Source of the DNA: a virus
Lineage: Duplodnaviria; Heunggongvirae; Uroviricota; Caudoviricetes
Virus record (IMG/VR): IMGVR_UViG_3300009502_000019
Length of the DNA: 64,000 nt
Strand: one strand, 5' to 3'
Shown one piece after another: positions 25,060 through 64,000 of this stretch (positions within the stretch are counted from its first letter, which is position 1; the number at the start of each line of letters is the position of its first letter). The translations under genes were made by a program, and so were the position numbers. The notes below the pieces were generated by a model. The model saw nothing but the letters and a program-made list of their open reading frames with translations, did not search any database and was not told the origin of the DNA.

Positions 25060-25080
25060 TTTATCCCCCTTTTATGTTAG

Positions 25081-25152
25081 TGCACCCACCAGGGCTCGAA
25101 CCTGGAACCAAAGGATTATGAGTCCTCTGCTCTACCATTGAGCTATGGGTGC
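25081..25152 (-). tRNA. tRNA-Met (anticodon CAT), or a lysidine tRNA-Ile
   Basis: Folds by hand: acceptor GCACCCA/TGGGTGC, D-arm GCTC-AATGGTA-GAGC, anticodon stem GAGGA/TCCTT with loop CTCATAA, T-arm CCAGG-TTCGAGC-CCTGG. CCA is not encoded. Confidence 0.8.
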
Positions 25153-28586: not shown

Positions 28587-29534
28587 CTATTCATACAGGC
28601 TTTGTTTTATGTACTCTTTGAATATAAGTGCGGTCTTTTTTCCAATAGCAGTTTGGGCTTCTTTACTAAAAACAATTTCTCCGACACTCTCTTTAAGCAC
28701 GTCCTCAACCATTGCTTTTATAATAGCCCCTGTTTCTGTAATAGTAGCATCCGGAAACCTATCAAGCACATGCATGAGGCGTTGACGCGTGACCCACTCG
28801 TCCGCGATAGCCTGTGCCTCTGTGAGTACTTCAAGGCGCTCTTTAGACACCTCTCTTTTCTTGGCAGTCTCCTGGAACTTCTCATTCTTGTGCTTGGCTA
28901 TTATCCGCTCACCATTGTTCTTCCGGAGCTCAACAAGAGTCCGTAAAACCACACCTTCACGGATATGCCCGGGCCCAACACCATTCCGCACAGCCTGGAC
29001 AGAGTCTGCCTCGGAAAGTGCATTTAAAACATCAAGATCTGTGGCAACCTCTTCATAATGAACAAACTCAATGCCGAGCTGAGCACACACAGACTCCGCG
29101 TTAGGCACAGCAAGCCAGTTTCCACCAAGCTTGACGTCGAAGGCTATAAACTTAAGCTCTTTGCCGTATGTGCCAGACATGCCCTGCTGCTTGCCACCAT
29201 AAGCTTCCCCAAAAACAATGAGCTCCTTGATGTTCATGGCTCGAAACTTGTTTTCTAGGTCTTGGTGGTTAAACAGTTTTATAAAGTTTTCGTGCTTTTC
29301 ACCGCCGGAGAAAAAATGCAGTTCAATCTTGTCAGGCCAGCGTTCTTGCCATTCAGCCTCAGTGTACCGCCTCGCGTCCTCGTTAACACCAATGATAGGT
29401 CCAAACACAAGCTGCCTGGACCGGTCAAGGCTAATATGTGCTGATGTTCCGTGGATCTTCTCCATAGCGTAGCAGCGCTTGAACATAAGAATTTCCTGGT
29501 TCTTGTAAAGATTATCTATCCCGAGATAGCCCAT
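28587..29534 (-). CDS. RNA ligase, Rnl2 (T4 RnlB)-like
   Basis: 315 aa. Motif I EKIHGTSA (lysine nucleotidyltransferase), matching T4 Rnl2 EKIHGTN, plus the downstream nucleotidyltransferase core. Confidence 0.7.
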   Translation of the reverse strand: MGYLGIDNLYKNQEILMFKRCYAMEKIHGTSAHISLDRSRQLVFGPIIGVNEDARRYTEAEWQERWPDKIELHFFSGGEKHENFIKLFNHQDLENKFRAMNIKELIVFGEAYGGKQQGMSGTYGKELKFIAFDVKLGGNWLAVPNAESVCAQLGIEFVHYEEVATDLDVLNALSEADSVQAVRNGVGPGHIREGVVLRTLVELRKNNGERIIAKHKNEKFQETAKKREVSKERLEVLTEAQAIADEWVTRQRLMHVLDRFPDATITETGAIIKAMVEDVLKESVGEIVFSKEAQTAIGKKTALIFKEYIKQSLYE

Positions 29535-34959: not shown

Positions 34960-35465
34960 GTCTGGTAAGGGTCCTTGGCCACGGCTTCATTGAAGGCGAT
35001 AACGGCAGCTTCGAGATCAGCAGATGGGTCCCAGTCTTCGTGAACATCGTCTTCAAGGAACTCATACACGTTAAGGACACGGCGTCGGTTCTGTTTGCAG
35101 AGCACTAGCTGCAGTTCCTCTGGCTCCAACCCTTCATCGTCGCAGTAATCAAGCAGGTCCTGCTCGTCAAAGAAGTAGGTGTCCGTGTCATAGATGGAGA
35201 TTGGCGTCTTGTAGTCCCACTGAATGACCTTAAACTTCTCAAACTTCTCTTGCTTTGATTTCTCTCTGCAGGACTCGCACTTTGTCCACCCCTTTTCCAT
35301 GGTTGCTCCACACTCGCACTTCAAGTGAGTGCATCCGGACCAGCGGGCCATGTGCTCATTGTCTCCCCAAAAGTGACCGTCTTTAGACATCCATCCGGTC
35401 ACAGTTACTTTTTTTGCTGCTTCGTCAGAGCTGTATTCGATCATAACGCCCCCTACTTTATGCAC
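34896..35465 (-). CDS. Hypothetical protein with Cys cluster
   Basis: 189 aa. CTHLKCECG...CESC zinc-binding-like cluster and an acidic middle. Confidence 0.45.
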   Translation of the reverse strand: MHKVGGVMIEYSSDEAAKKVTVTGWMSKDGHFWGDNEHMARWSGCTHLKCECGATMEKGWTKCESCREKSKQEKFEKFKVIQWDYKTPISIYDTDTYFFDEQDLLDYCDDEGLEPEELQLVLCKQNRRRVLNVYEFLEDDVHEDWDPSADLEAAVIAFNEAVAKDPYQTWFATDTRVTLAPKEKEAENT

Positions 35466-36919
35466 CCGAGACGCTTGCGAATGTCTGCAAGTGTGTACTC
35501 GGTTACGATTTTGCCATCTTCAAATACGGTTGTAAGCAGCCCAAGATCCTCTTGTTCTGGCGTGACATCTTCAATCATCGTGAGCTCTCCGGTTGTAGCA
35601 TCTTGATTAACCTGCAAGAGCCCGCGGGCGGACTTCTTGATCCCGCTATCGGTTTTCGGGTCCTTGTAGATAGTCACAGGCTTTCCGTTGATGATGCCCC
35701 AGGTAGCTTTCATGGCAAACCCGAAGGTGTCACGTGTCACAAACTGGTAAGTGTAGCTTCCGATGCCAAACACCATGTTCGTGGACGCAAACCCCTTTCG
35801 TGCAAGACCTTCACAAATGGCTTCGCACCGCTCAAGTGTGATGCTGTCGCCATAGATTACCCCAATGTGCTTGTCGAGTTGCTTGAACCCTTTAGCGTTT
35901 GTGTAGCCGCCAAAGGTGTTCCACAGAAGCTCAACAGTGCCGGCTTTGGCTGCTGGATCATCACTCACAGCGTCGCCACAGATGATCTTCACAGGATCAC
36001 CACTGTCGGGGCGAACCACAAGCCGACCGTTCCGGTTCATAATTACATCTTTTAGAGCCGGAAGGGTCTTCGTGATCACATTCCAGTAGTCCCATGTGTC
36101 AGACACAACAGAGACAATGCCAGTAGGATAGATCTCAGTAAGGAGCCTGCGAAACGTCTCTTCTTCTGACAGAAGACCACCGAGGCACATGACCGAGTGC
36201 TCCGTTGCCGGAACACTGCCACCTACCATCTCCTTGTCAGAGTCAGCGCCGTAATATTCTTCAAGGAAGTCGATCGCTGGGACCGTGTCCGTGCCCGTAA
36301 AGCTAAGCAGATGGCCAGCAGCAGACATTAGGGCTCCCTCAATCCCAAATATTCCTCGCATCGAGAAGTCATGGCCCTGCCAGTTGACAAACTCCGGAAT
36401 GTCAGATGTCCTTGCCGCGTACCCATCCAGCATCTTTCTGTAGGCGTAGGCTGTAGATGCTGAAGTGGTTGGGCCCCACACGATATTACACATGACTGTT
36501 TCCATGAAGTTTGTTAGCCAAAAAAACTTCGGGTGGGTGTTCCGGATCGTTAGGATCGGAATACGCATCGGACACAGAGTTCCTTCTGGAAGAGCTTTGA
36601 GCAGAATAGGAAGGTATCCAAGATCATGAAGCTCCCCAACGTGCTCAATGGGAACAGAGTCTTTTCCAAGAGCATTATCAAGGCGCCGTTTGTACTTGCG
36701 AACAACCTCGTCTTTTGGTTGGTTGAAAAAGTCCTCATTCCACCGCTTAATCAAGTACTCTTTGACAAAATACTGGATTCCAAACACGACCACGTGGTCG
36801 ACCCCAGGCACACGGCTCCCGCGAGGCGTTAGATTGGAGTACACGATCTCAGTTCCTGTCGGGTACTGCCTTCTATGGTCTGTTTTGTAGAAATCCTTGA
36901 GTACAATGGGTGAAATCAT
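35453..36919 (-). CDS. nadV: Nicotinamide phosphoribosyltransferase (NAMPT/NadV)
   Basis: 488 aa, collinear with NAMPT/PBEF family proteins (length and core GIQYF...DSGDP...GVIYGD). Confidence 0.8.
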   Translation of the reverse strand: MISPIVLKDFYKTDHRRQYPTGTEIVYSNLTPRGSRVPGVDHVVVFGIQYFVKEYLIKRWNEDFFNQPKDEVVRKYKRRLDNALGKDSVPIEHVGELHDLGYLPILLKALPEGTLCPMRIPILTIRNTHPKFFWLTNFMETVMCNIVWGPTTSASTAYAYRKMLDGYAARTSDIPEFVNWQGHDFSMRGIFGIEGALMSAAGHLLSFTGTDTVPAIDFLEEYYGADSDKEMVGGSVPATEHSVMCLGGLLSEEETFRRLLTEIYPTGIVSVVSDTWDYWNVITKTLPALKDVIMNRNGRLVVRPDSGDPVKIICGDAVSDDPAAKAGTVELLWNTFGGYTNAKGFKQLDKHIGVIYGDSITLERCEAICEGLARKGFASTNMVFGIGSYTYQFVTRDTFGFAMKATWGIINGKPVTIYKDPKTDSGIKKSARGLLQVNQDATTGELTMIEDVTPEQEDLGLLTTVFEDGKIVTEYTLADIRKRLGCIK

Positions 36920-37341: not shown

Positions 37342-37769
37342 TTCCCCTCCTTCTCAAGAGTGGACAGGCGGTTCTGGAGTTCTTTGTTTTCAGCCTCCAG
37401 TTTTTCAAATGCACAATCAAACGCATAATCTCCTTTTGAAGCATCCTCCATAATCTTTTCCAACTCAGCGTTACGAGTGCGGAGTTCTTCCATTTCCTTA
37501 TCCTTGCGCTCAATACATTTTTTGACTTGAACAAACTGCCAATCATTTTCTTTCAGCCTTTCTTCCAACTCTGCGTTCTCACGCTTGAGGTCGGCTATCG
37601 CATCCAAGGCATTCTCGCCGGTTACTTCCTTCGAGTGCCCCGTTATGCCCAGAGCTTCCTCGATTTCTTCTATCAGCTGATCTTTCAGCGTTAGGATGAT
37701 ATCCAAACTTTCAACACGGGCCTTAAACTCCCCAAGTTGCCTGTTCATGTCTTTTTCCTTATCGCTCAT
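37338..37769 (-). CDS. Coiled-coil protein (segmentally paralogous to 58864-59643)
   Basis: 143 aa, heptad-rich. Shares NKELQNRLSTLEKEGK / EELRTRNAELEK with the plus-strand protein at 58864. Confidence 0.5.
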   Translation of the reverse strand: MSDKEKDMNRQLGEFKARVESLDIILTLKDQLIEEIEEALGITGHSKEVTGENALDAIADLKRENAELEERLKENDWQFVQVKKCIERKDKEMEELRTRNAELEKIMEDASKGDYAFDCAFEKLEAENKELQNRLSTLEKEGK

Positions 37770-38527
37770 TTCACTTTACCTTTCAGTGTGTATATCTCGT
37801 CGATAATGCCGTCGAAGACTTCCATTCCTTTGGTGAAAAAGCCATGTGACACCATGAGAATGACCTTCTTGGCACCCTTTTCACGAAGGACCTTGGCGAT
37901 CTCAATGAAAGTCTTGCCTCCGTCGCAAATATCGTCAACAATTACACAGGTGTCCCCTTCCAATGAGTCGGCATAGACAACCGTTCCGGTGATGGCTCCT
38001 GTCCGCGGCTCCCGTTTCTTCGAACACTCAACAACACCCAAGATCCGGTTGGTCATAGAAGGAAGGTCGCTGATCTTGTTGATCTTCTTCCTGGCACCGC
38101 CATCCGGGCAGATCAACTTAAACGGCTCTATCTCCCTAAGCATCGGTTCAAAGATCTCATGCTGATGTATTACAAGGCAGTTGTGGATAAGGGCTGTTGA
38201 AACGTCCGAGTGTGGGTCAGCGATCTCCACGACAACCCCCAGCGAGTTGATAATGCCGGCGAATACCTCCAAGGAGAAGCACTCCCCTGATACAGCGACC
38301 CTATCCTGCCTTCCAAAAGGAACATACGGCATAAATATTCGTTCAAGGGTTAGACCAGCATGCTTTAGGGCATTGGCAATGAGCATAAGCTCAACCAGCT
38401 CCTCGGTCCTCTCGAAGTAGAACTCAATCGCAACTTCGTCGTTCGGGGTGTAACTGTGCACCTTAACGTGCATTTCTCCAACCGGAAACTTGAATGTTTC
38501 GTGTGTAAACCCAAGACCCTTAATCAT
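37766..38527 (-). CDS. prs: Ribose-phosphate pyrophosphokinase (PRPP synthetase)-like
   Basis: 253 aa. PRTase-type PRPP-binding loop VIVDDICDGGKT and an N-terminal Prs fold. Confidence 0.75.
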   Translation of the reverse strand: MIKGLGFTHETFKFPVGEMHVKVHSYTPNDEVAIEFYFERTEELVELMLIANALKHAGLTLERIFMPYVPFGRQDRVAVSGECFSLEVFAGIINSLGVVVEIADPHSDVSTALIHNCLVIHQHEIFEPMLREIEPFKLICPDGGARKKINKISDLPSMTNRILGVVECSKKREPRTGAITGTVVYADSLEGDTCVIVDDICDGGKTFIEIAKVLREKGAKKVILMVSHGFFTKGMEVFDGIIDEIYTLKGKVK

Positions 38528-51756: not shown

Positions 51757-52218
51757 ATGGCTGATCTGTATTTGCATAGGCTTGTAAGCAATCATAGAAT
51801 CGTTGGATACGAAGCAGCAATTCAGCAGCCGGATGGCACAATTAAATGGATGTATCGGCGCTGCCACCCGAGAAGAGGTGAGCTACCAGGTTTGTTTGAC
51901 TGGAGTTTTGAGGGACTGTCTCATGACACAAAAAATATAGCCGCTGGAGTAATTGATGGTAAATTTCGGGATCAGAAACTACAAATATATGAAGGAGACA
52001 TTTTACAGTGCTACCCAAGCACGCGTGACGAGGGGCTTTATGTAGTGACATCATATGAGTACGCCGACGGGATAGATTCCAGAAGAGGTTTAAAATTTGG
52101 TAAATATGAGTTCACGCCGTGCACGCTGGTAGGAAATATCTACAATAATCTTGATTTCTATAACTCAAAATGCCGCAAAAAAGAGAGAATAAATCCATAT
52201 GTACAAGTTCAAAAATGA
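51757..52218 (+). CDS. YopX-like protein
   Basis: C-terminal LVGNIYNNLDFY resembles the YopX family GNI(Y/H)ENPELL ending. Internal Met start chosen. Confidence 0.45.
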   Translation: MADLYLHRLVSNHRIVGYEAAIQQPDGTIKWMYRRCHPRRGELPGLFDWSFEGLSHDTKNIAAGVIDGKFRDQKLQIYEGDILQCYPSTRDEGLYVVTSYEYADGIDSRRGLKFGKYEFTPCTLVGNIYNNLDFYNSKCRKKERINPYVQVQK

Positions 52219-54358
52219 AGAAATGAAAGTCCCGGCATTCATATGGTCTGCGGAGGGATCGATCGAGGAGTCTGCTCTGTCACAGATCAGCAACCTCTCG
52301 AAGCTCCCATTCGCGTTCCACCACATCGCGATCATGCCGGACTGCCACTCTGGATATGGCATGCCAATCGGTGGCGTGTTGGCCGCGGAGCGTGTGGTTA
52401 TTCCTAACGCGGTTGGTGTGGATATCGGTTGTGTTGACAAAGATACAGAGTTTCTTACTGGTTTTGGATGGAAGAAAATTTCGGAGTACAAGGATGAAAA
52501 AGTAATGGAGTACTGTCCAGATACTGGGGCAGCTAGACTTGTTACGCCTGAGAACTACATAAAGGTGCCGTGCGAAAAATTTATACATTTTAAAACAAAA
52601 TATGGCATTGACCAAATGGTTAGTGAAGATCACAGATGTTTAGTATTCCTTAACGATAGGAAGACCAACTTCTCTAAGTATCAAGTAGACTTGGCTTCTG
52701 AAATACTTCAAAAGCACTTGTCCACAAAAACAGGATACAGGCATAGATTTGTAACAACATTTACTCCGGAATTAATAACACGTGTTAGTCTTACAGACGC
52801 CGAGCTAAGAGTAATGGTAATGTTCTGTGCCGACGGCTACATAGACAGAACTCGGGGGCTACTCAGGGTCAAAAAAGATAGGAAAGTTAAGCGTGCAATA
52901 AAGCTACTGAATGATGCTAATATAAAATATATACAAAGTGTCAATAAGTATGATGGTGTAACTCATATACGATTTTCTCCTCCTATTCTTGAGAAAGGTC
53001 TAAAGCAATTTTGGAATGCTAGTTTTGAGCAGCTTCTTGTAGTAAATGATGAAGTGCTACATTGGGACGGTAACGAGAAAGATCAAGTATTCTTTACTCG
53101 GAATCGGGAAGACGCTGATTTTGTTCAATACGTCTTCTCCTCGTGTGGATTTAGGAGTGTTCTTCGGACAGATATTGGGAGAAGCGGGCTAGATAGTGAA
53201 TTAGACTATCGAGTATTTAGATCAACTAGCACTAAAATAGGAATGAACGGGTACCCAAAAACTAAAATGTCGTATGCTAAAAGTGAAGACGGGTTTAAGT
53301 ATTGCTTTACAGTCCCGTCTGGATTTTTTATCGCAAGAAGAAACGGGAACGTGTTTGCAACAGGAAACTGTGGTATGTGCGCTCTAAAGACTCCGTGGAC
53401 AACTGAGTGGATCACCAAAGAGGTCATTAAGAAGCTCTTTGGAGGCTCGAAGGAGCATCACGGCGGCATCAGAACGGTTGTACCGGTAGGGTTTAGTCAC
53501 CACGGTGAAAAACAGAACGAGCAGCTTATGCCTGAAACGCGATCAATTCGCCAGGCTTTCCTAGTCGACTCAAGTATTGTTGAGCAGGAGTACCAGTCTG
53601 CCTTGAAGCAGATTGGGACGCTCGGCGGTGGGAACCATTTTATCGAAATACAGAAGGATCAGACTGGGTTTATTTGGATCATGATTCACTCGGGAAGTAG
53701 GAACATTGGCTTTAAGGTTGCTAAGCACTACAATGACCTCGCTAAGGAAATGACTGCAAAGTGGTTTTCGTCAGTTCCAAAGGAGTCTGACTTGGCATTT
53801 CTTCCTATAGACAGCACTGAAGGTCAGAAGTACCTACTTGAAATGCAATACTGTGTCGAGTTTGCGCTGGCTAACCGCAAGCTAATGATGGAGCGCATTG
53901 TAAATGTGTTTAACAGCACTCTTGGTGGCAGCATCGACATGAGCGGAATGATAAACATTGCTCACAACTACGCCACTGTCGAAAGCCATTTTGGAAAGAA
54001 CGTTATGGTTCACAGGAAGGGAGCGACTTTAGCCAGAGAAAACACTATCGGCATCATCCCTGGATCTCAGGGCACCAAGAGCTACATCGTCAAGGGTAAA
54101 GGTAATCAAGAGAGCTTTATGTCCTGCTCACACGGCGCCGGCAGGACTATGAGCCGTACCAAGGCTGAGAACACCCTAAACCTTGAGGAAGAGCAGAGGC
54201 GTCTGGACGATCAGGGCATCATTCACGGTATCCGGACAGCAAAGGACCTTGATGAAGCTGCGGGCGCGTACAAGCCGATTGATCAGGTAATGAAGAACCA
54301 GGAAGATCTCGTCGAGATCGTGGTTGAACTGCAGCCTTTAGGGGTCATTAAAGGCTGA
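52199..54358 (+). CDS. rtcB: RtcB RNA ligase interrupted by an intein (precursor)
   Basis: Exteins match RtcB: HHIAIMPDCHSGYGMP..GVDIG|CGM...NHF...HNYA...SHGAGR. Insertion is precisely at the conserved GVDIG-CGM site. Confidence 0.85.
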   Translation: MYKFKNEEMKVPAFIWSAEGSIEESALSQISNLSKLPFAFHHIAIMPDCHSGYGMPIGGVLAAERVVIPNAVGVDIGCVDKDTEFLTGFGWKKISEYKDEKVMEYCPDTGAARLVTPENYIKVPCEKFIHFKTKYGIDQMVSEDHRCLVFLNDRKTNFSKYQVDLASEILQKHLSTKTGYRHRFVTTFTPELITRVSLTDAELRVMVMFCADGYIDRTRGLLRVKKDRKVKRAIKLLNDANIKYIQSVNKYDGVTHIRFSPPILEKGLKQFWNASFEQLLVVNDEVLHWDGNEKDQVFFTRNREDADFVQYVFSSCGFRSVLRTDIGRSGLDSELDYRVFRSTSTKIGMNGYPKTKMSYAKSEDGFKYCFTVPSGFFIARRNGNVFATGNCGMCALKTPWTTEWITKEVIKKLFGGSKEHHGGIRTVVPVGFSHHGEKQNEQLMPETRSIRQAFLVDSSIVEQEYQSALKQIGTLGGGNHFIEIQKDQTGFIWIMIHSGSRNIGFKVAKHYNDLAKEMTAKWFSSVPKESDLAFLPIDSTEGQKYLLEMQYCVEFALANRKLMMERIVNVFNSTLGGSIDMSGMINIAHNYATVESHFGKNVMVHRKGATLARENTIGIIPGSQGTKSYIVKGKGNQESFMSCSHGAGRTMSRTKAENTLNLEEEQRRLDDQGIIHGIRTAKDLDEAAGAYKPIDQVMKNQEDLVEIVVELQPLGVIKG
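52430..53368 (+). mobile_element. Intein (313 aa) with LAGLIDADG-like homing endonuclease domain inside rtcB
   Basis: Begins with Cys (CVDKDTEFLTG) and ends ...VFATGN, followed by the extein Cys (CGM). Internal LTDAELRVMVMFCADGYI resembles a LAGLIDADG motif. Confidence 0.75.
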
Positions 54359-54863: not shown

Positions 54864-55126
54864 AGATGGTGTGTGCCGAATGTAATTTTGAGCTTAGTAC
54901 CGAGCAAAACGGGATCTTTGTGATCGAAATGGCTGACTTCGGGCCCTACAAGATCTACTCAGCGGACCTGTATAAATGTGCTGGGTGTGGCAAAGAAACT
55001 GTGGCTGGCTTTGCAACTAACCCGTATTCGGAGCACTTCGAAGATGGGTTCCAGAATGTTTTGGAGAGGGTTAAAAGTGGCAGGCATTTCTACAACTACG
55101 GGCGGACCGGGAGATACAAGAAATGA
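54860..55126 (+). CDS. Zinc-ribbon small protein
   Basis: 88 aa with CAECN...CAGCG. Confidence 0.4.
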   Translation: MKMVCAECNFELSTEQNGIFVIEMADFGPYKIYSADLYKCAGCGKETVAGFATNPYSEHFEDGFQNVLERVKSGRHFYNYGRTGRYKK

Positions 55127-55704
55127 GTAATACCGAAAGTAAAACATGTCAAAATTGCTTCTACGCTGACGGTGGAACATGTGGAAACTGCTCTGCACAG
55201 CCGGAAGGAGCAACTACAGAGATTTCCGCTGGGTTTGTCTGCGACAACTGGAAACATCAGTTAGCTAAAGTCATTTTCCTGGATGTAGATGGTGTAATCA
55301 ATTCGCGTAGAACGTGTATAGCGTACGACGGATACCCCTGGGAAGTAGATAAGCAGGGTTTAAAGATGTTTGACCACGTTGCTATAGATCTTATTAGAGT
55401 TGCATGCGAGAAAACTGGGGCCAGGATAATCCTATCCTCTACATGGCGGCGCTCGACAGGGCACGTGAACATGGCAGTAGCAATGCATCTTCCGATGATG
55501 GATTCTACGCCTGAAAAGCTGTCCTCAGCGCGTGGCGAGGAGATCGCTATGTGGCTTCGGGACCACCCAGAAGTGGAGCAATACGCTATTGTAGACGACG
55601 ACAGCGACATGTTAGATGGACAGCTTCCATACTTTGTCAAGGTAGATCCGGATAATGGGCTGTCTTATAAGAACTACCTAAAAATATTGGAGCTGCTCAA
55701 ATGA
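55123..55704 (+). CDS. HAD-family hydrolase with N-terminal Cys cluster (possible polynucleotide 3'-phosphatase or nucleotidase)
   Basis: 193 aa with HAD motif I VIFLDVDGVIN and a C-terminal IVDDDSD. Confidence 0.5.
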   Translation: MSNTESKTCQNCFYADGGTCGNCSAQPEGATTEISAGFVCDNWKHQLAKVIFLDVDGVINSRRTCIAYDGYPWEVDKQGLKMFDHVAIDLIRVACEKTGARIILSSTWRRSTGHVNMAVAMHLPMMDSTPEKLSSARGEEIAMWLRDHPEVEQYAIVDDDSDMLDGQLPYFVKVDPDNGLSYKNYLKILELLK

Positions 55705-60922: not shown

Positions 60923-61468
60923 GTGAAGTACTGTAACGAGCGGTACATTAAAAAAAGCCATACGCAATTACGAAAGTGTTTGCGTAATTGGGAGTTTAAG
61001 TCCGCATTAGAGCACCTAGCACCTGAACCGAACTGGATTAAGTGGACTGTGCAGGCGTTAGCCGAGCTATACGGAAATGCTGCTAGAAGCTCTGTTAGGC
61101 ATGCGGAACTTGTTGTAATTCAATCCGCTGTGCACGACATCACGGGTGTCCACCCGCATCCTCCAGACCATAAACAAGAGACAGTAGTCGATACACCATT
61201 GCGAAAGTGTACTGTGCCATCATGTCTTCCGCATGCTCGTGTCGGTCTTCGAGTTGTATCAAACCGCGGTAGACGAGCACTGGAGCACAATGGGATCAAG
61301 ACTATTGGGGAAGCCTTTGCGTGCGGACCAAAAAAGATTATGTCACTTACACAAGTAGGTAAAAAGACATTTTGGGAACTTGTGACATTATTTAATGCAG
61401 CTGGGCTAGATGGGAACAAGTGGTCTGAGCAGTATGAGTATCTGGATGAAATACAACCAGGTATTTAA
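60923..61468 (+). CDS. Protein with RNA polymerase alpha C-terminal domain (alphaCTD)-like HhH module
   Basis: 181 aa. LRVVSNRGRRALEHNGIKTIGEAFACGPKKIMSLTQVGKKTFWELVTLFNAAG follows the RpoA CTD pattern L.LS.R..N.L...GI.TIG.L......L......GKKS..E....L. Confidence 0.45.
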   Translation: MKYCNERYIKKSHTQLRKCLRNWEFKSALEHLAPEPNWIKWTVQALAELYGNAARSSVRHAELVVIQSAVHDITGVHPHPPDHKQETVVDTPLRKCTVPSCLPHARVGLRVVSNRGRRALEHNGIKTIGEAFACGPKKIMSLTQVGKKTFWELVTLFNAAGLDGNKWSEQYEYLDEIQPGI

Positions 61469-61724
61469 AGCAGCTTCTCAGACAGAAGTCACTAAGAGGC
61501 AAGAGCGATACCCATTCAGTGCTTGTGAAGGTGCCGGGCTTCCGGTCATTATGACACTGCTGCCAAGCCTTGTACTTGATCAGGTAAGTGAGTGCCAGCC
61601 GCTAGAGAGCTGCAAAAGCACTGTGTTCTATGTGGATGTCATACACCGCGGATGGAATTGGAGGTATGTTCGGAGTCAGATCAGGTACTACTGGGCCAAG
61701 TGGACCGGTAGGATAATGCACTAA
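61446..61724 (+). CDS. Small protein, paralog of 62321-62530
   Basis: MKYNQVFKAASQTEVTKRQERYPFSAC aligns with MNHVFKAATQDEVRKRIFACVDC. Confidence 0.4.
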   Translation: MKYNQVFKAASQTEVTKRQERYPFSACEGAGLPVIMTLLPSLVLDQVSECQPLESCKSTVFYVDVIHRGWNWRYVRSQIRYYWAKWTGRIMH

Positions 61725-62225: not shown

Positions 62226-62311
62226 TGGTGGCCGAGGCGGGACTTGAACCCGCACGTCCTTTCGGACACAAGCCCCTCAAACTTGCGCGGCTGCCATTAC
62301 GCCACTCGGCC
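62226..62311 (-). tRNA. tRNA-Leu (anticodon GAG), class II with long variable arm, CCA encoded
   Basis: Hand fold: acceptor GGCCGAG/CTCGGCC, D-arm GTGGCGTAATGGCAGCCGC, anticodon stem CAAGT/GCTTG with loop TTGAGGG, variable stem-loop GTCCGAAAGGAC, T-arm GCGGG-TTCAAGT-CCCGC, 3' ACCA. Confidence 0.7.
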
Positions 62312-62320
62312 AATAAAATT

Positions 62321-62530
62321 ATGAATCACGTTTTTAAAGCTGCTACTCAAGACGAAGTACGAAAGCGTATATTCGCGTGTGTTGACTGCAACTACTTCTT
62401 AGATAACTTAGGTGGTATACAAAGCGTGTGTTCGAAGTTTTACCCAAGCATATCCATACAACTTACGGATCCGAACAGCTCTGTTCCAAAGTGGTGCCCG
62501 TTAAAAGATGGTGGGCACGGTAGGACTTGA
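62321..62530 (+). CDS. Small protein between tRNA genes (paralog of 61446-61724); 3' end overlaps the tRNA on the opposite strand
   Basis: ATG at 62321. CVDC and Cys/Pro-rich. Confidence 0.3.
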   Translation: MNHVFKAATQDEVRKRIFACVDCNYFLDNLGGIQSVCSKFYPSISIQLTDPNSSVPKWCPLKDGGHGRT

Positions 62531-62592
62531 ACCTACACGTCCGAAGACACAGGCTTCTAAGACCTGCGCGGCTGCCATTACGCCACGTGCCC
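62509..62592 (-). tRNA. tRNA-Leu (anticodon TAG), class II
   Basis: Same D-arm as the other Leu tRNAs. Anticodon stem CAGGT/GCCTG with loop CTTAGAA. T-arm GTAGG-TTCAAGT-CCTAC. CCA encoded. Confidence 0.7.
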
Positions 62593-62670
62593 TTGGTACC
62601 GGATGAGGGAATCGCACCCACACTTTACGGCTTTTAAGACCGTCGCCTCTGCTATTGGGCTAATCCGGCT

Positions 62671-62756
62671 TGGTGCGAGTGGAGGGACTCGAACCCCCAC
62701 ATCCTTTCGGACATCGGCTTTTGAGACCGACGCGGCTGCCATTACGCCACACTCGC
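62671..62756 (-). tRNA. tRNA-Leu (anticodon CAA), class II
   Basis: Anticodon stem TCGGT/GCCGA with loop CTCAAAA; variable arm GTCCGAAAGGAT; CCA encoded. Confidence 0.7.
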
Positions 62757-62761
62757 TTGAT

Positions 62762-62846
62762 TGGTGCGATCGGCAGGACTTGAACCTGCACGGGGTTGAC
62801 CCATAAGCTTCTGAGGCTTACGCGGCTGCCATTACGCCACGATCGC
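62762..62846 (-). tRNA. tRNA-Leu (anticodon CAG), class II
   Basis: Anticodon stem TAAGC/GCTTA with loop CTCAGAA; T-arm GCAGG-TTCAAGT-CCTGC; CCA encoded. Confidence 0.7.
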
Positions 62847-62847
62847 T

Positions 62848-62926
62848 TGGTCTCTCTGGTCAGGGTCGAACTGACATGATATCCTGTTTAGAAGACAGGT
62901 GGACTATCCAATTATCCCACAGAGAG
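62848..62926 (-). tRNA. tRNA-Arg (anticodon TCT)
   Basis: Acceptor CTCTCTG/CAGAGAG. Anticodon stem CCTGT/ACAGG with loop CTTCTAA. T-arm GTCAG-TTCGACC-CTGAC. CCA encoded. Confidence 0.65.
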
Positions 62927-62927
62927 G

Positions 62928-63611
62928 TTAGAACTTCATTCTTCTTCCCGGCATCCATCCTTTTGATAAATATGACATAAAATCTGATTCTGTTACTTTT
63001 ATGGATTTTTTAAGGCCAGGATTGTAAATCCACTTTTTCCCATATTGGGAATTTCCTTTCCCGGACTGTGCTTTTGATACTATTGACCCAATATATTTTT
63101 TATGCTCTTCTGTGTGATGTTTATTTTTGAACCTCATTCCATCTTTTAGGCTAAAAAATCCAGACTTGTTTTTCCGTTGAGTTTCTATACTTTTCTTATG
63201 TGCTGGCTTGCGAAGTTTTTCATTATTAAATCCAATTCCCTTCTCTTTGCACATATTACCAATAGCAACCATCTTCTTTCTTGTTTCTTCTTTATTTGGA
63301 TTATTTGTAAAATAATCTCCACCCTCGCCACCCGGTGTTATGTTGTATCCCTTAGACCAGGTACAGCCTACATCAGCTATCCAAGCTATTTCTAATTCAT
63401 TTAGCTCTGCTTTACTATAAGCACAATCAATGGGTCGTATCTTAAATCTACCTTGACCGTACTTTTTCATAACACGTCTTATTATGACACCACTTGGTTT
63501 GTATTTTGGATCAAACCTACTTCCTTTGTGTTGACCAATGTATCTCATATTGGTCACCAAATCAGTTACCAAGTAAATGTAACCATAACAATTTTCTAAT
63601 ATCCTGTTCAT
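62928..63611 (-). CDS. GIY-YIG homing endonuclease (SegB/I-TevI-like) inserted in the tRNA cluster
   Basis: 227 aa and AT-rich. N-terminal GIY-YIG core YGYIYLVTDLVTNMRYIGQHKG. NUMOD-like HTEEHKKYIGS repeats. Basic DNA-binding C-terminus. Confidence 0.8.
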   Translation of the reverse strand: MNRILENCYGYIYLVTDLVTNMRYIGQHKGSRFDPKYKPSGVIIRRVMKKYGQGRFKIRPIDCAYSKAELNELEIAWIADVGCTWSKGYNITPGGEGGDYFTNNPNKEETRKKMVAIGNMCKEKGIGFNNEKLRKPAHKKSIETQRKNKSGFFSLKDGMRFKNKHHTEEHKKYIGSIVSKAQSGKGNSQYGKKWIYNPGLKKSIKVTESDFMSYLSKGWMPGRRMKF

Positions 63612-63624
63612 ACTTACTCCAGGT

Positions 63625-63700
63625 TGGTACCTCTACTCAGATTCAAACTGAGATGTGTAGTTTCGAAGACTACCGCCTTATTCAATTAGGCCATAGAGGT
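63625..63700 (-). tRNA. tRNA-Arg (anticodon TCG), tentative
   Basis: Acceptor ACCTCTA/TAGAGGT. D-arm GCC-TAATTGAATAA-GGC. Anticodon stem GTAGT/ACTAC with loop CTTCGAA. T-arm CTCAG-TTTGAAT-CTGAG. 3' ACCA. The A1 start and the T-loop are atypical. Confidence 0.5.
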
Positions 63701-63705
63701 ATGAT

Positions 63706-63930
63706 TTAATAGAGCTCTTCCCACTTGTTCTGATCGTAGCTCCAGTGCCGTACATCGTACACTGACAACTCTGCAAAAAACCCAAATACTTCTAAGAAAA
63801 GCCTAAAGCCGGCATGATCACAGTTGCGAGTAAGCTCGAGATTAAACCGAAACCAGCACCACTCCTCGAACTTGTCCAACTGAAGCTCCCATGCTTTGTT
63901 CTTTGAGATCTTCCAACCGATGTCTGTCAT
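63706..63930 (-). CDS. Hypothetical small protein
   Basis: 74 aa ORF downstream of the tRNA array. Confidence 0.35.
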   Translation of the reverse strand: MTDIGWKISKNKAWELQLDKFEEWCWFRFNLELTRNCDHAGFRLFLEVFGFFAELSVYDVRHWSYDQNKWEELY

Positions 63931-64000
63931 GTCGCCCCCACACGATGCAATTTATTCCATATCTTTATTATAACATCACCATGGCAATGCTTGGGTTTGC

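Follow-up and report, generated by a model that had tools for sequence, protein, structure and literature searches.

A phage tRNA island and a candidate lineage of short leucine tRNAs with a substituted elbow contact

Why would a phage carry a dense run of leucine and arginine tRNA genes, and where do such genes come from? The question is raised by positions 62226-63700 of a 64,000-nt stretch of DNA (the window) from the Caudoviricetes record IMGVR_UViG_3300009502_000019 in the IMG/VR database. A first, sequence-only reading of this DNA had described four tRNA-Leu genes derived from one another by duplication and anticodon diversification, together with two tRNA-Arg genes and a GIY-YIG homing endonuclease, and had suggested that they serve to replace tRNAs cut by host anticodon nucleases. 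Our analysis shows that these ~1.5 kb are the last part of a large tRNA island and that they include a fifth leucine gene, tRNA-Leu(UAA), which has no long variable arm. We consider it likely that the locus is the downstream end of a same-strand island of a large uncultured freshwater phage, best understood as a translation-autonomy module, and that Leu-UAA derives from a separate lineage of short leucine tRNAs.

ARAGORN predicts eight tRNA genes in the window, seven of which lie on the minus strand within the studied stretch (Table 1). The same seven genes are recovered by the Rfam family RF00005 with 48.1-59.1 bits against a gathering score of 29, and each of them combines a cloverleaf above this threshold with a 7-nt anticodon loop. 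Beyond these seven genes and a solitary tRNA-Met, no stretch of the window reaches the threshold of any Rfam family. In the direction of transcription the order is Arg-UCG, a 227-codon open reading frame (ORF), Arg-UCU, Leu-CAG, Leu-CAA, Leu-UAA, Leu-UAG, a 197-nt spacer and Leu-GAG. The 3' CCA is encoded in all seven genes. Intergenic gaps in the leucine block measure 1-5 nt, with 1-nt spacers on both the Leu-UAG and the Leu-CAA side of Leu-UAA. The two programs agree with the sequence-only reading on the coordinates and identities of its six tRNA genes, among them an Arg-UCG gene that had been called tentative and has the top score of the cluster. The count of four leucine genes was one too low. 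Leu-UAA had presumably been overlooked for its short length (73 nt plus CCA) and its different D-arm. The four genes had been credited with covering most leucine codons, and because Leu-UAA adds to them, all six are read.

Bacterial leucine tRNAs are expected to bear a long extra arm. Leu-GAG, Leu-UAG, Leu-CAA and Leu-CAG have variable arms of 13-15 nt, above the 10 nt that delimit bacterial class II tRNA-Leu, and contain the complete E. coli leucine identity set. Leu-UAA (GCCGGAU UA GCC C AAUAGCAG A GGC G ACGGU CUUAAAA GCCGU AAAGU GUGGG UGCGAUU CCCUC AUCCGGU A CCA) falls outside class II, with a 5-nt variable loop (AAAGU) and no long arm. Its D-loop AAUAGCAG carries A18 and its T-loop UGCGAUU carries G55. 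A73, A14, A15:U48, G19-C56, A20a and U54:A58 are kept, and A18:G55 stands in place of G18:U55. A G1-U72 pair and a U50-U64 mismatch are further peculiarities of this gene. The E. coli identity set consists of A73, A14, A15:U48, G18G19, A20a and the contacts G18:U55, G19-C56 and U54:A58, and the E. coli leucyl-tRNA synthetase (LeuRS) needs A73, A15:U48 and the tertiary contacts between D- and T-loop, not the long arm and not the anticodon (PMC9976931).

The exact D-arm of Leu-UAA is found in three unrelated IMG/VR contigs, always in a short leucine tRNA with a G55 T-loop. A metagenome scan with this D-arm (Y allowed at position 16) returned 87 loci. All 81 of 81 metagenomic D-arm carriers have leucine anticodons (CAG 36, CAA 19, UAG 15, UAA 6 and GAG 5), and all but two are 73 nt long, with or without CCA. 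We defined the short Leu family by the D-arm UAGCCCAAYAGCAGAGGCG, a length of 73 nt, a leucine anticodon, A73, U48 and the T-loop UGCRA, and Leu-UAA matches every one of these features. Across 50 unique 73-nt members, the stems are 98-100% paired at nearly every position, with 3-5 pair types at each. U48, A14, A15, A20a, A35 and G55 are present in all 50, A73 in 49 and G1-U72 in 21. Given this stem covariation and these invariant positions, we read the short leucine tRNAs as a functional family, and their leucine identity is suggested by the exclusive use of leucine anticodons. A tRNA-Leu(UAG) with a short variable loop has been noted in one sentence on a mycobacterial cluster (PMC6582537). 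Apart from this remark, the literature that we searched describes neither a short phage tRNA-Leu family nor uniform leucine anticodons in one.

In mature tRNAs, the U at position 55 is a pseudouridine. Its replacement by G in Leu-UAA is part of a wider covariation with the D-loop. In a set of ~500 distinct tRNAs from loci that had been fetched for other purposes, G55 occurred with an AG (no GG) D-loop 14 times and with GG 0 times, while U55 occurred with GG 474 times and with AG twice (Fisher p=3e-25), 12 of the 14 G55 cases being from a single contig. An independent scan of IMG/VR, in which tRNAs were chosen by a generic A18-type D-arm alone (TAGCTCAGNAGH(N)AGAGC), yielded 74 tRNAs of many isotypes on 73 contigs. 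Of these, 55 had the T-loop UGC and 13 the same motif parsed one base off, so that the G55 share was ~92% in tRNAs with an A18-type D-arm compared with ~2% in unselected tRNAs. The same preference marked most tRNAs, whatever their isotype, that share metagenome loci with the short Leu family (301 UGC and 61 AGC versus 95 UUC), and ~165 short leucine tRNAs were counted there versus ~10 long ones. Since G55-type tRNAs and short leucine tRNAs dominate these arrays, we interpret them as a whole lineage of mobile tRNA arrays with an A18-G55 elbow and arm-less leucine tRNAs, to which Leu-UAA would belong. Leu-UAA itself appears, on this comparative evidence, to be a member of a separate, widespread lineage in mobile tRNA arrays and not a copy of its array neighbours. 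The A18-G55 covariation is not described in the literature that we searched.

Other elbow changes occur in the same island. A second, Watson-Crick swap from G19-C56 to A19-U56 is found in Arg-UCG and in two further island tRNAs. In total, more than half of the ~29 island tRNAs (L042:1595-9086, where L042 denotes the same contig, reaching 10 kb past the right end of the window, and window 62594-62669 and 63625-63700) are non-canonical at the elbow (A18-G55, A19-U56, A54-U58, or G54 with G58). All six island tRNAs that were missed by ARAGORN and recovered by Rfam only have non-canonical elbows and the oddest T-loops of the set. The tRNA counts of phage genomes are therefore probably underestimates.

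Two questions about the origin of the leucine genes remain to be weighed against this background. Leu-UAA might be a decaying or non-functional tRNA-like remnant that is still scored by gene finders. It lacks the long arm and G18, has the G1-U72 pair and the U50-U64 mismatch, and its fold z-score is only -0.97. We consider a remnant very unlikely, since Leu-UAA is the sole reader of UUA in the island, its Rfam score is level with those of its neighbours, at least 50 distinct family members show compensatory stem changes, invariant identity positions and leucine anticodons only, G1-U72 recurs in the family, and the A18-G55 covariation is consistent across hundreds of tRNAs. The four long-arm genes pose a different problem, namely whether they arose from one phage gene by duplication within the array and anticodon switching, while constraints from LeuRS held the D-arm fixed. 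The 20-nt D-arm GTGGCGTAATGGCAGCCGCG is indeed identical in all four and occurs exactly four times in the window (0.02 expected), once in each class II gene, which is just what had been described from the sequence. Such a complete set is exceptional: in a comparison with 22 other viral loci that have two or more long-arm leucine genes and at least one exact copy of this D-arm, it is generally found in only 1 of 2-5 leucine genes (twice at two loci and never more). Further, the variable arms of Leu-GAG and Leu-CAA agree at 14 of 15 positions, the T-arms of Leu-GAG, Leu-UAG and Leu-CAG are only one or two compensated pairs apart, Leu-CAG ranks third to fourth of 109 as a neighbour of Leu-UAG and Leu-CAA, and the short Leu family shows clear anticodon switching, with different anticodons on backbones that are nearly identical. 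Against this, 41 IMG/VR contigs and >120 bacterial species from a wide range of phyla share the D-arm 20-mer, the variable arm shared by Leu-GAG and Leu-CAA is the second commonest in the background, and both are widespread in bacteria and phages. We compared 113 distinct leucine tRNAs with this D-arm at 45 fixed positions outside D-arm and anticodon. Among the window's class II genes, the six pairwise identities range from 56 to 71% (mean 0.641), compared with a mean of 0.611 +/- 0.089 for unrelated pairs whose anticodons differ. Random quartets with the same D-arm reach 0.636 +/- 0.061, 42% of them being at least as similar as the window's four genes. The power of this comparison is low, as the clear CAG/GAG paralogues of another locus (L034) score only 0.69. 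Each window gene has closer relatives elsewhere, which for Leu-UAG are other UAG isoacceptors, and the fifth gene, Leu-UAA, is clearly of another lineage. Because the genes are no more alike outside the D-arm than unrelated leucine tRNAs that share it, recent duplication is not shown, and the duplication with anticodon diversification that the sequence-only reading took to be implied is not demonstrated. In-array duplication is, in our view, conceivable and somewhat improbable; ancient common descent, or homogenisation under one LeuRS, would be possible sources of the likeness.

Beyond position 64000 the island runs on for at least 8 kb, adding ~22 tRNA genes that serve at least 12 more amino acids. 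ARAGORN finds 22 tRNAs in L042 and Rfam alone adds the six mentioned above, which brings the island to ~29 tRNA or tRNA-like genes, all on one strand, grouped by amino acid and covering at least 14 amino acids. Listed along L042, they are Glu (two), Asp, Ser (two), Trp, Cys-GCA, a CAU tRNA, Lys (two), Gln (two), Pro (two), Asn, Val (two), a 92-nt Ile-UAU, Ile-GAU, Met, Arg-GCG and Arg-CCU, followed by the window's seven. The special focus on leucine and arginine as nuclease targets that had been read into the locus is thus not borne out; the apparent specialisation arises because the window's end cuts the island in two. Interspersed among the tRNAs are a CCA-adding enzyme (PF01743, PF12627 and PF01966; PolyA_pol, RNA-binding and HD domains), an HNH endonuclease, a second Seg-like gene and an RNase P RNA. 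Several normally class I tRNAs of the island bear long extra arms, namely Ile-UAU (L042:8695-8786), Cys-GCA (84 nt, U73, L042:3738-3821) and the CAU tRNA (83 nt, L042:3649-3731); Ile-UAU genes of ~90 nt are present at loci L009, L019 and L020 too.

The RNase P RNA is a class A molecule of 289 nt (L042:2799-3087, plus strand of that locus, the same strand as the tRNAs) that lies ~6.8 kb past the right end of the window. It matches RF00010 over the whole model (134.2 bits, E=1e-42; gathering score 100) and has both the CR-I and CR-V cores (GAGGAAACUCCGGGC and ACAGAACCCGGGUUA) and the GGU of the CCA-binding loop. The molecule is otherwise reduced, with the 43 model positions of P13/P14 replaced by 2 nt and the 24 positions of P18 by 0 nt. 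A motif scan of IMG/VR followed by Rfam yielded full-length, tRNA-flanked class A RNase P RNAs with 108-308 bits on nine contigs of 100-463 kb (L037, L300, L304, L305, L310, L320, L334, L337 and L353), whose viral label is that of IMG/VR. Candidates for an RNase P RNA in cultured GenBank phages were rejected, the blastn matches being to bacterial-like or contaminated records. One record named Microcystis phage MaAM05 (L443; MW495066.1:111323-119478) has an RNase P RNA-like stretch amid fabI, engB, mtgA and glyS and looks bacterial. The literature that we searched reports no phage RNase P RNA, and none inside tRNA arrays. If these RNAs are active, the phages would bring their own ribozyme for tRNA maturation.

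The 227-codon ORF between the two arginine genes had been taken for a GIY-YIG homing endonuclease reminiscent of T4 segB, and this assignment holds. The N-terminus GYIYLVTDLVTNMRYIGQ has the GIY-YIG signature (GYIY...RYIG in translation), phrog_314 (homing endonuclease) matches the ORF with E=3e-27, and tblastn aligns 95-97% of the protein at ~30% identity with SegB-like, SegD and Seg-like GIY-YIG genes of T4-like phages (E down to 1e-20). TIGR01453 matches with E=1.7e-8, below its cut-off, and Pfam matches are weak (NUMOD3 E=0.0018, just under the cut-off; SegE_GIY-YIG E=0.07). Since phmmer gave no meaningful match to PDB sequences, PHROG, tblastn and TIGRFAM are the basis for assigning the class. 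The gene thus combines the family homology and motif of the Seg type with a free-standing intergenic position, a NUMOD3 module near the cut-off and an atypical GC content (35% versus 47% for the window). A GGAG ribosome-binding site lies 7 nt upstream. The ORF exactly fills the gap between the tRNA genes, its start codon lying 13 nt after Arg-UCG and its stop codon 1 nt before Arg-UCU. Public contigs that encode the protein number at least 16, and some exceed 200 kb. No endonuclease-free allele was found, as 22 of 22 contigs with the neighbouring 74-aa gene carry the endonuclease too. By analogy with T4 SegB, this Seg-like endonuclease would be a selfish passenger that favours inheritance of the tRNA region in mixed infections.

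Taken together, these features are most consistent with a module in which a broad tRNA set would keep phage translation running whatever the state of the host tRNA pool, and in which the endonucleases would be selfish passengers. Given the 1-5 nt packing and the encoded CCA ends, the tRNAs would be made as long precursors and released by RNase P cleavage and 3' trimming; the same transcripts would also yield the intervening ORFs, that of the endonuclease among them. The four arginine and five leucine genes at the window end of the island cover the six Arg and the six Leu codons completely. The phage makes fairly even use of its Leu, Arg and Ile codons, AGG, AGA and AUA included, and the island has readers for all of them. 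Within the phage genes, leucine is encoded by CUU (32%), CUC (18%), CUG (15%), UUG (14%), CUA (12%) and UUA (8%), all six arginine codons are used (AGG 28%, AGA 16%), and AUA accounts for 25% of isoleucine codons. The four arginine tRNAs (GCG, CCU, UCG and UCU; L042:9251-9402 and window 62848-63700) manage without an ACG/inosine tRNA, Arg-GCG and Arg-UCG serving in its place, and Ile-UAU needs no lysidine to read AUA, so this set would not depend on host TadA or TilS.

Several observations weigh against this interpretation. The codon usage is that of the phage side alone. A scan for sigma-70 promoters and terminators gave nothing above shuffled controls, and a possible antisense ORF within the array complicates the single-transcript model. 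All copies of the region are identical and carry no within-lineage signal of selection on these genes. As to Leu-UAA, a mismatch of the U50-U64 type is present at that pair in only 2 of 50 family members, and G18:U55 contributes to leucine identity in E. coli (PMC9976931). Charging of an A18-G55 tRNA by LeuRS is plausible from its sequence only if the tertiary contact is truly restored.

A different role for the island is counter-defence, in which phage tRNAs would replace host tRNAs cut by anticodon or other tRNA nucleases, the odd tRNA features, from the missing arm of Leu-UAA and the A18-G55 and A19-U56 elbows to A37 in Leu-UAG and Leu-CAG, would make poor substrates for host nucleases, and an RtcB ligase, an Rnl2-like ligase, a HAD phosphatase and the CCA-adding enzyme would mend damaged molecules. 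The repair genes are present. RtcB has an insert of ~310 aa at the conserved DIGC motif (junctions ...GVDIG/CVDKDTEF...NVFATGN/CGMC...), and the Rnl2-like ligase matches TIGR02307 with E=2.4e-14, far below that model's cut-off. The RNA-repair context named in the sequence-only reading holds and is larger than had been described, with two ligases and a phosphatase domain in the window and the CCA-adding enzyme and RNase P RNA just outside it; no polynucleotide kinase was found among the ORFs scanned. The only hint of anticodon nucleases in the sequence lies in the anticodon loops. Position 37 is the m1G37 site in bacterial CUN-reading leucine tRNAs, and A37 replaces G37 in Leu-UAG and Leu-CAG. 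Bacterial counterparts have G37 in 43 of 48 cases, viral ones in only 10 of 19 (Fisher p=0.002); counted for A37 among CAG and UAG genes that share the D-arm, the figures are 9 of 19 viral and 5 of 46 bacterial (p=0.002). This agrees with a published proposal in which changes in the anticodon loop let phage tRNAs evade nucleases (PMC10264068). The non-canonical elbows in more than half of the island tRNAs also speak for counter-defence. Human antiviral SLFN11 prefers the type II tRNA-Leu-UAA, and deletion of the variable arm lowers its cleavage (PMC11615386). Yet the SLFN11 parallel is human, large phages commonly carry RNA-repair genes whatever their defence context, four of the five leucine tRNAs retain the long arm and a canonical elbow, and leucine and arginine are not singled out in an island that covers at least 14 amino acids. 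The repair genes, A37 and the SLFN11 parallel are compatible with counter-defence and are not evidence for a specific bacterial nuclease. We judge this explanation unlikely. We also know of no classical bacterial anticodon nuclease with tRNA-Leu as its main target. More speculative still, and to our mind decidedly improbable, is a semi-orthogonal tRNA supply system in which altered tRNAs would escape host factors that read the elbow or the long arm, be processed by the phage RNase P and be charged by host synthetases. It builds on A18-G55, A19-U56, A54-U58 in place of U54-A58, the arm-less leucine tRNA, the minimal RNase P RNA and the CCA-adding enzyme. If it were true, the escaped factors would be defence nucleases or modification enzymes such as TruB and TrmH. 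We retain translation autonomy as the more probable role of the island.

Table 1. Features of the studied stretch and related genes of the window (positions in the 64,000-nt window)
Feature	Position	Strand	Description	Evidence
tRNA-Leu(GAG)	62226..62311	-	class II, 83 nt + CCA, G37, canonical G18G19/U54U55C56 elbow	ARAGORN; Rfam 48.1 bits
Spacer within array	62312..62508	-	197 nt	minimum free energy z-score 0.09; Rfam nothing at E<=1
Putative antisense ORF	62321..62530	+	69 aa, in spacer, overlaps Leu-UAG by 22 nt	status uncertain
tRNA-Leu(UAG)	62509..62592	-	class II, A37, canonical elbow	ARAGORN; Rfam 56.1 bits
tRNA-Leu(UAA)	62594..62669	-	class I length, 73 nt + CCA	ARAGORN; Rfam 53.9 bits; cloverleaf centroid
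tRNA-Leu(CAA)	62671..62756	-	class II	ARAGORN; Rfam 53.9 bits
tRNA-Leu(CAG)	62762..62846	-	class II, A37	ARAGORN; Rfam 55.7 bits
tRNA-Arg(UCU)	62848..62926	-	76 nt + CCA, 7-nt variable loop, canonical elbow	ARAGORN; Rfam 53.7 bits
Seg-like GIY-YIG homing endonuclease	62928..63611	-	free-standing, 227 aa, between Arg-UCG and Arg-UCU	
tRNA-Arg(UCG)	63625..63700	-	73 nt + CCA, A19-U56 replaces G19-C56	ARAGORN; Rfam 59.1 bits
ORF, function unassigned	63706..63930	-	74 aa, within island, directly upstream of Arg-UCG	called as gene on 22 contigs
tRNA-Met(CAU)	25080..25152	-	solitary, only other tRNA of the window	ARAGORN; Rfam 73.5 bits
ATP-dependent RNA ligase	28587..29534	-	distantly Rnl2-like	PF09414 E=6e-13; phrog_548 E=8e-30
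RtcB RNA ligase	52199..54358	+	with intein-like insert	PF01139 E=9e-108 in two stretches; NF052663 intein-containing RtcB
HAD_SAK_2 phosphatase domain	55123..55704	+	'Swiss Army Knife' RNA-repair type	PF18143 E=2.5e-23, above cut-off

Two small ORFs lie within or next to the array. The 74-aa ORF upstream of Arg-UCG has no family match in searches with Pfam-type profiles and PHROG. A hidden RNA gene in the 197-nt spacer was rejected, as Rfam is empty there and the fold is not significant on the tRNA strand. The putative 69-aa ORF on the opposite strand of the spacer has no match in PHROG and Pfam searches; in repeat D4, which concerns this ORF, differences fall mostly on third codon positions. 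An N-terminal motif, VF[KR]AA[ST]..EV..R, is shared by four ORFs of the window, at 62330 (+), 61461 (+), 1960 (-) and 34887 (-), two of which go on with EEVARRPKPP, and may be a targeting or processing signal. Despite this short common motif, BLASTP gave no match between the spacer ORF and the ORF at 61410-61724.

As to the phage itself, seven loci from different samples, which include stratified-lake metagenomes, are 100% identical to the window over 2 kb. Samples that contain this phage include ERZ1426631, SRR5754711 and ERR4195937. Megablast of the region against GenBank phages gave no match and the distant mode only generic tRNA similarity; an IMG/VR search through the CCA-adding enzyme gave no confirmed relative. 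The replication and recombination set of the window is T4-like (PolA-UDG fusion, DnaB, primase, UvsW, UvsX-like recombinase, gp32-like single-stranded DNA-binding protein and Mre11-Rad50 fusion). The D-arm 20-mer was rejected as a guide to the host, since it occurs in groups as different as Bacteroidota, Kiritimatiellia, Micromonospora and Chloroflexota, among others. The window also encodes a nicotinamide phosphoribosyltransferase (35453-36919, minus strand) near a ribose-phosphate pyrophosphokinase (37766-38527, minus strand); NAD+ salvage pairs of this kind have been linked to escape from NAD-depleting defences.

What is new here is the family of arm-less leucine tRNAs, which is large, has gone all but undescribed and shows a compensated elbow. 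Such tRNAs, which a recent authoritative review restricts to animal mitochondria, appear to be common in mobile tRNA arrays, and in them A18-G55 systematically takes the place of the near-universal G18-Psi55 elbow contact. The family provides a natural, sequence-rich test set for LeuRS recognition, for the tolerance of the tRNA elbow and for the question of why phages carry tRNAs.

A phage tRNA island with a Seg-like endonuclease is in itself a familiar kind of feature. The tRNA region of phage T4 reportedly contains the GIY-YIG homing endonuclease gene segB, and as in T4, tandem same-strand tRNAs here enclose a free-standing Seg-type GIY-YIG ORF. T4 has 8 tRNAs compared with ~29 in this island, which has complete leucine and arginine sets, and no endonuclease-free relative was found. 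T4 Pnkp and Rnl1 repair tRNAs against the anticodon nuclease PrrC; in both phages RNA end-healing and sealing functions accompany the phage's own tRNA genes, but the enzymes differ, being here an intein-containing RtcB, a distant Rnl2-like ligase and HAD_SAK_2. Large phage tRNA clusters are known from XacN1 with 56 tRNAs (PMC5852040) and from huge phages (PMC7162821), and mobile tRNA arrays from mycobacteria (PMC5966550, PMC6582537) and as L-arrays (PMC8421152). Like the present island, these clusters and arrays are dense, grouped by amino acid and interspersed with HNH or GIY-YIG genes, and they include Ile-UAU and Arg-UCG. For the short leucine tRNAs, the nearest parallel is the animal mitochondrion, the only setting in which, according to a review, tRNA-Leu is not long-armed; leucine identity of human mt-tRNA-Leu(UUR) depends on A73 and A14 (PMC9976931). 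Both groups have a class I architecture without a long variable arm. In the phage family, D-arm, T-arm and elbow have all retained their full size and the surrounding arrays are of bacterial type, so that an origin independent of mitochondrial tRNA-Leu is indicated.

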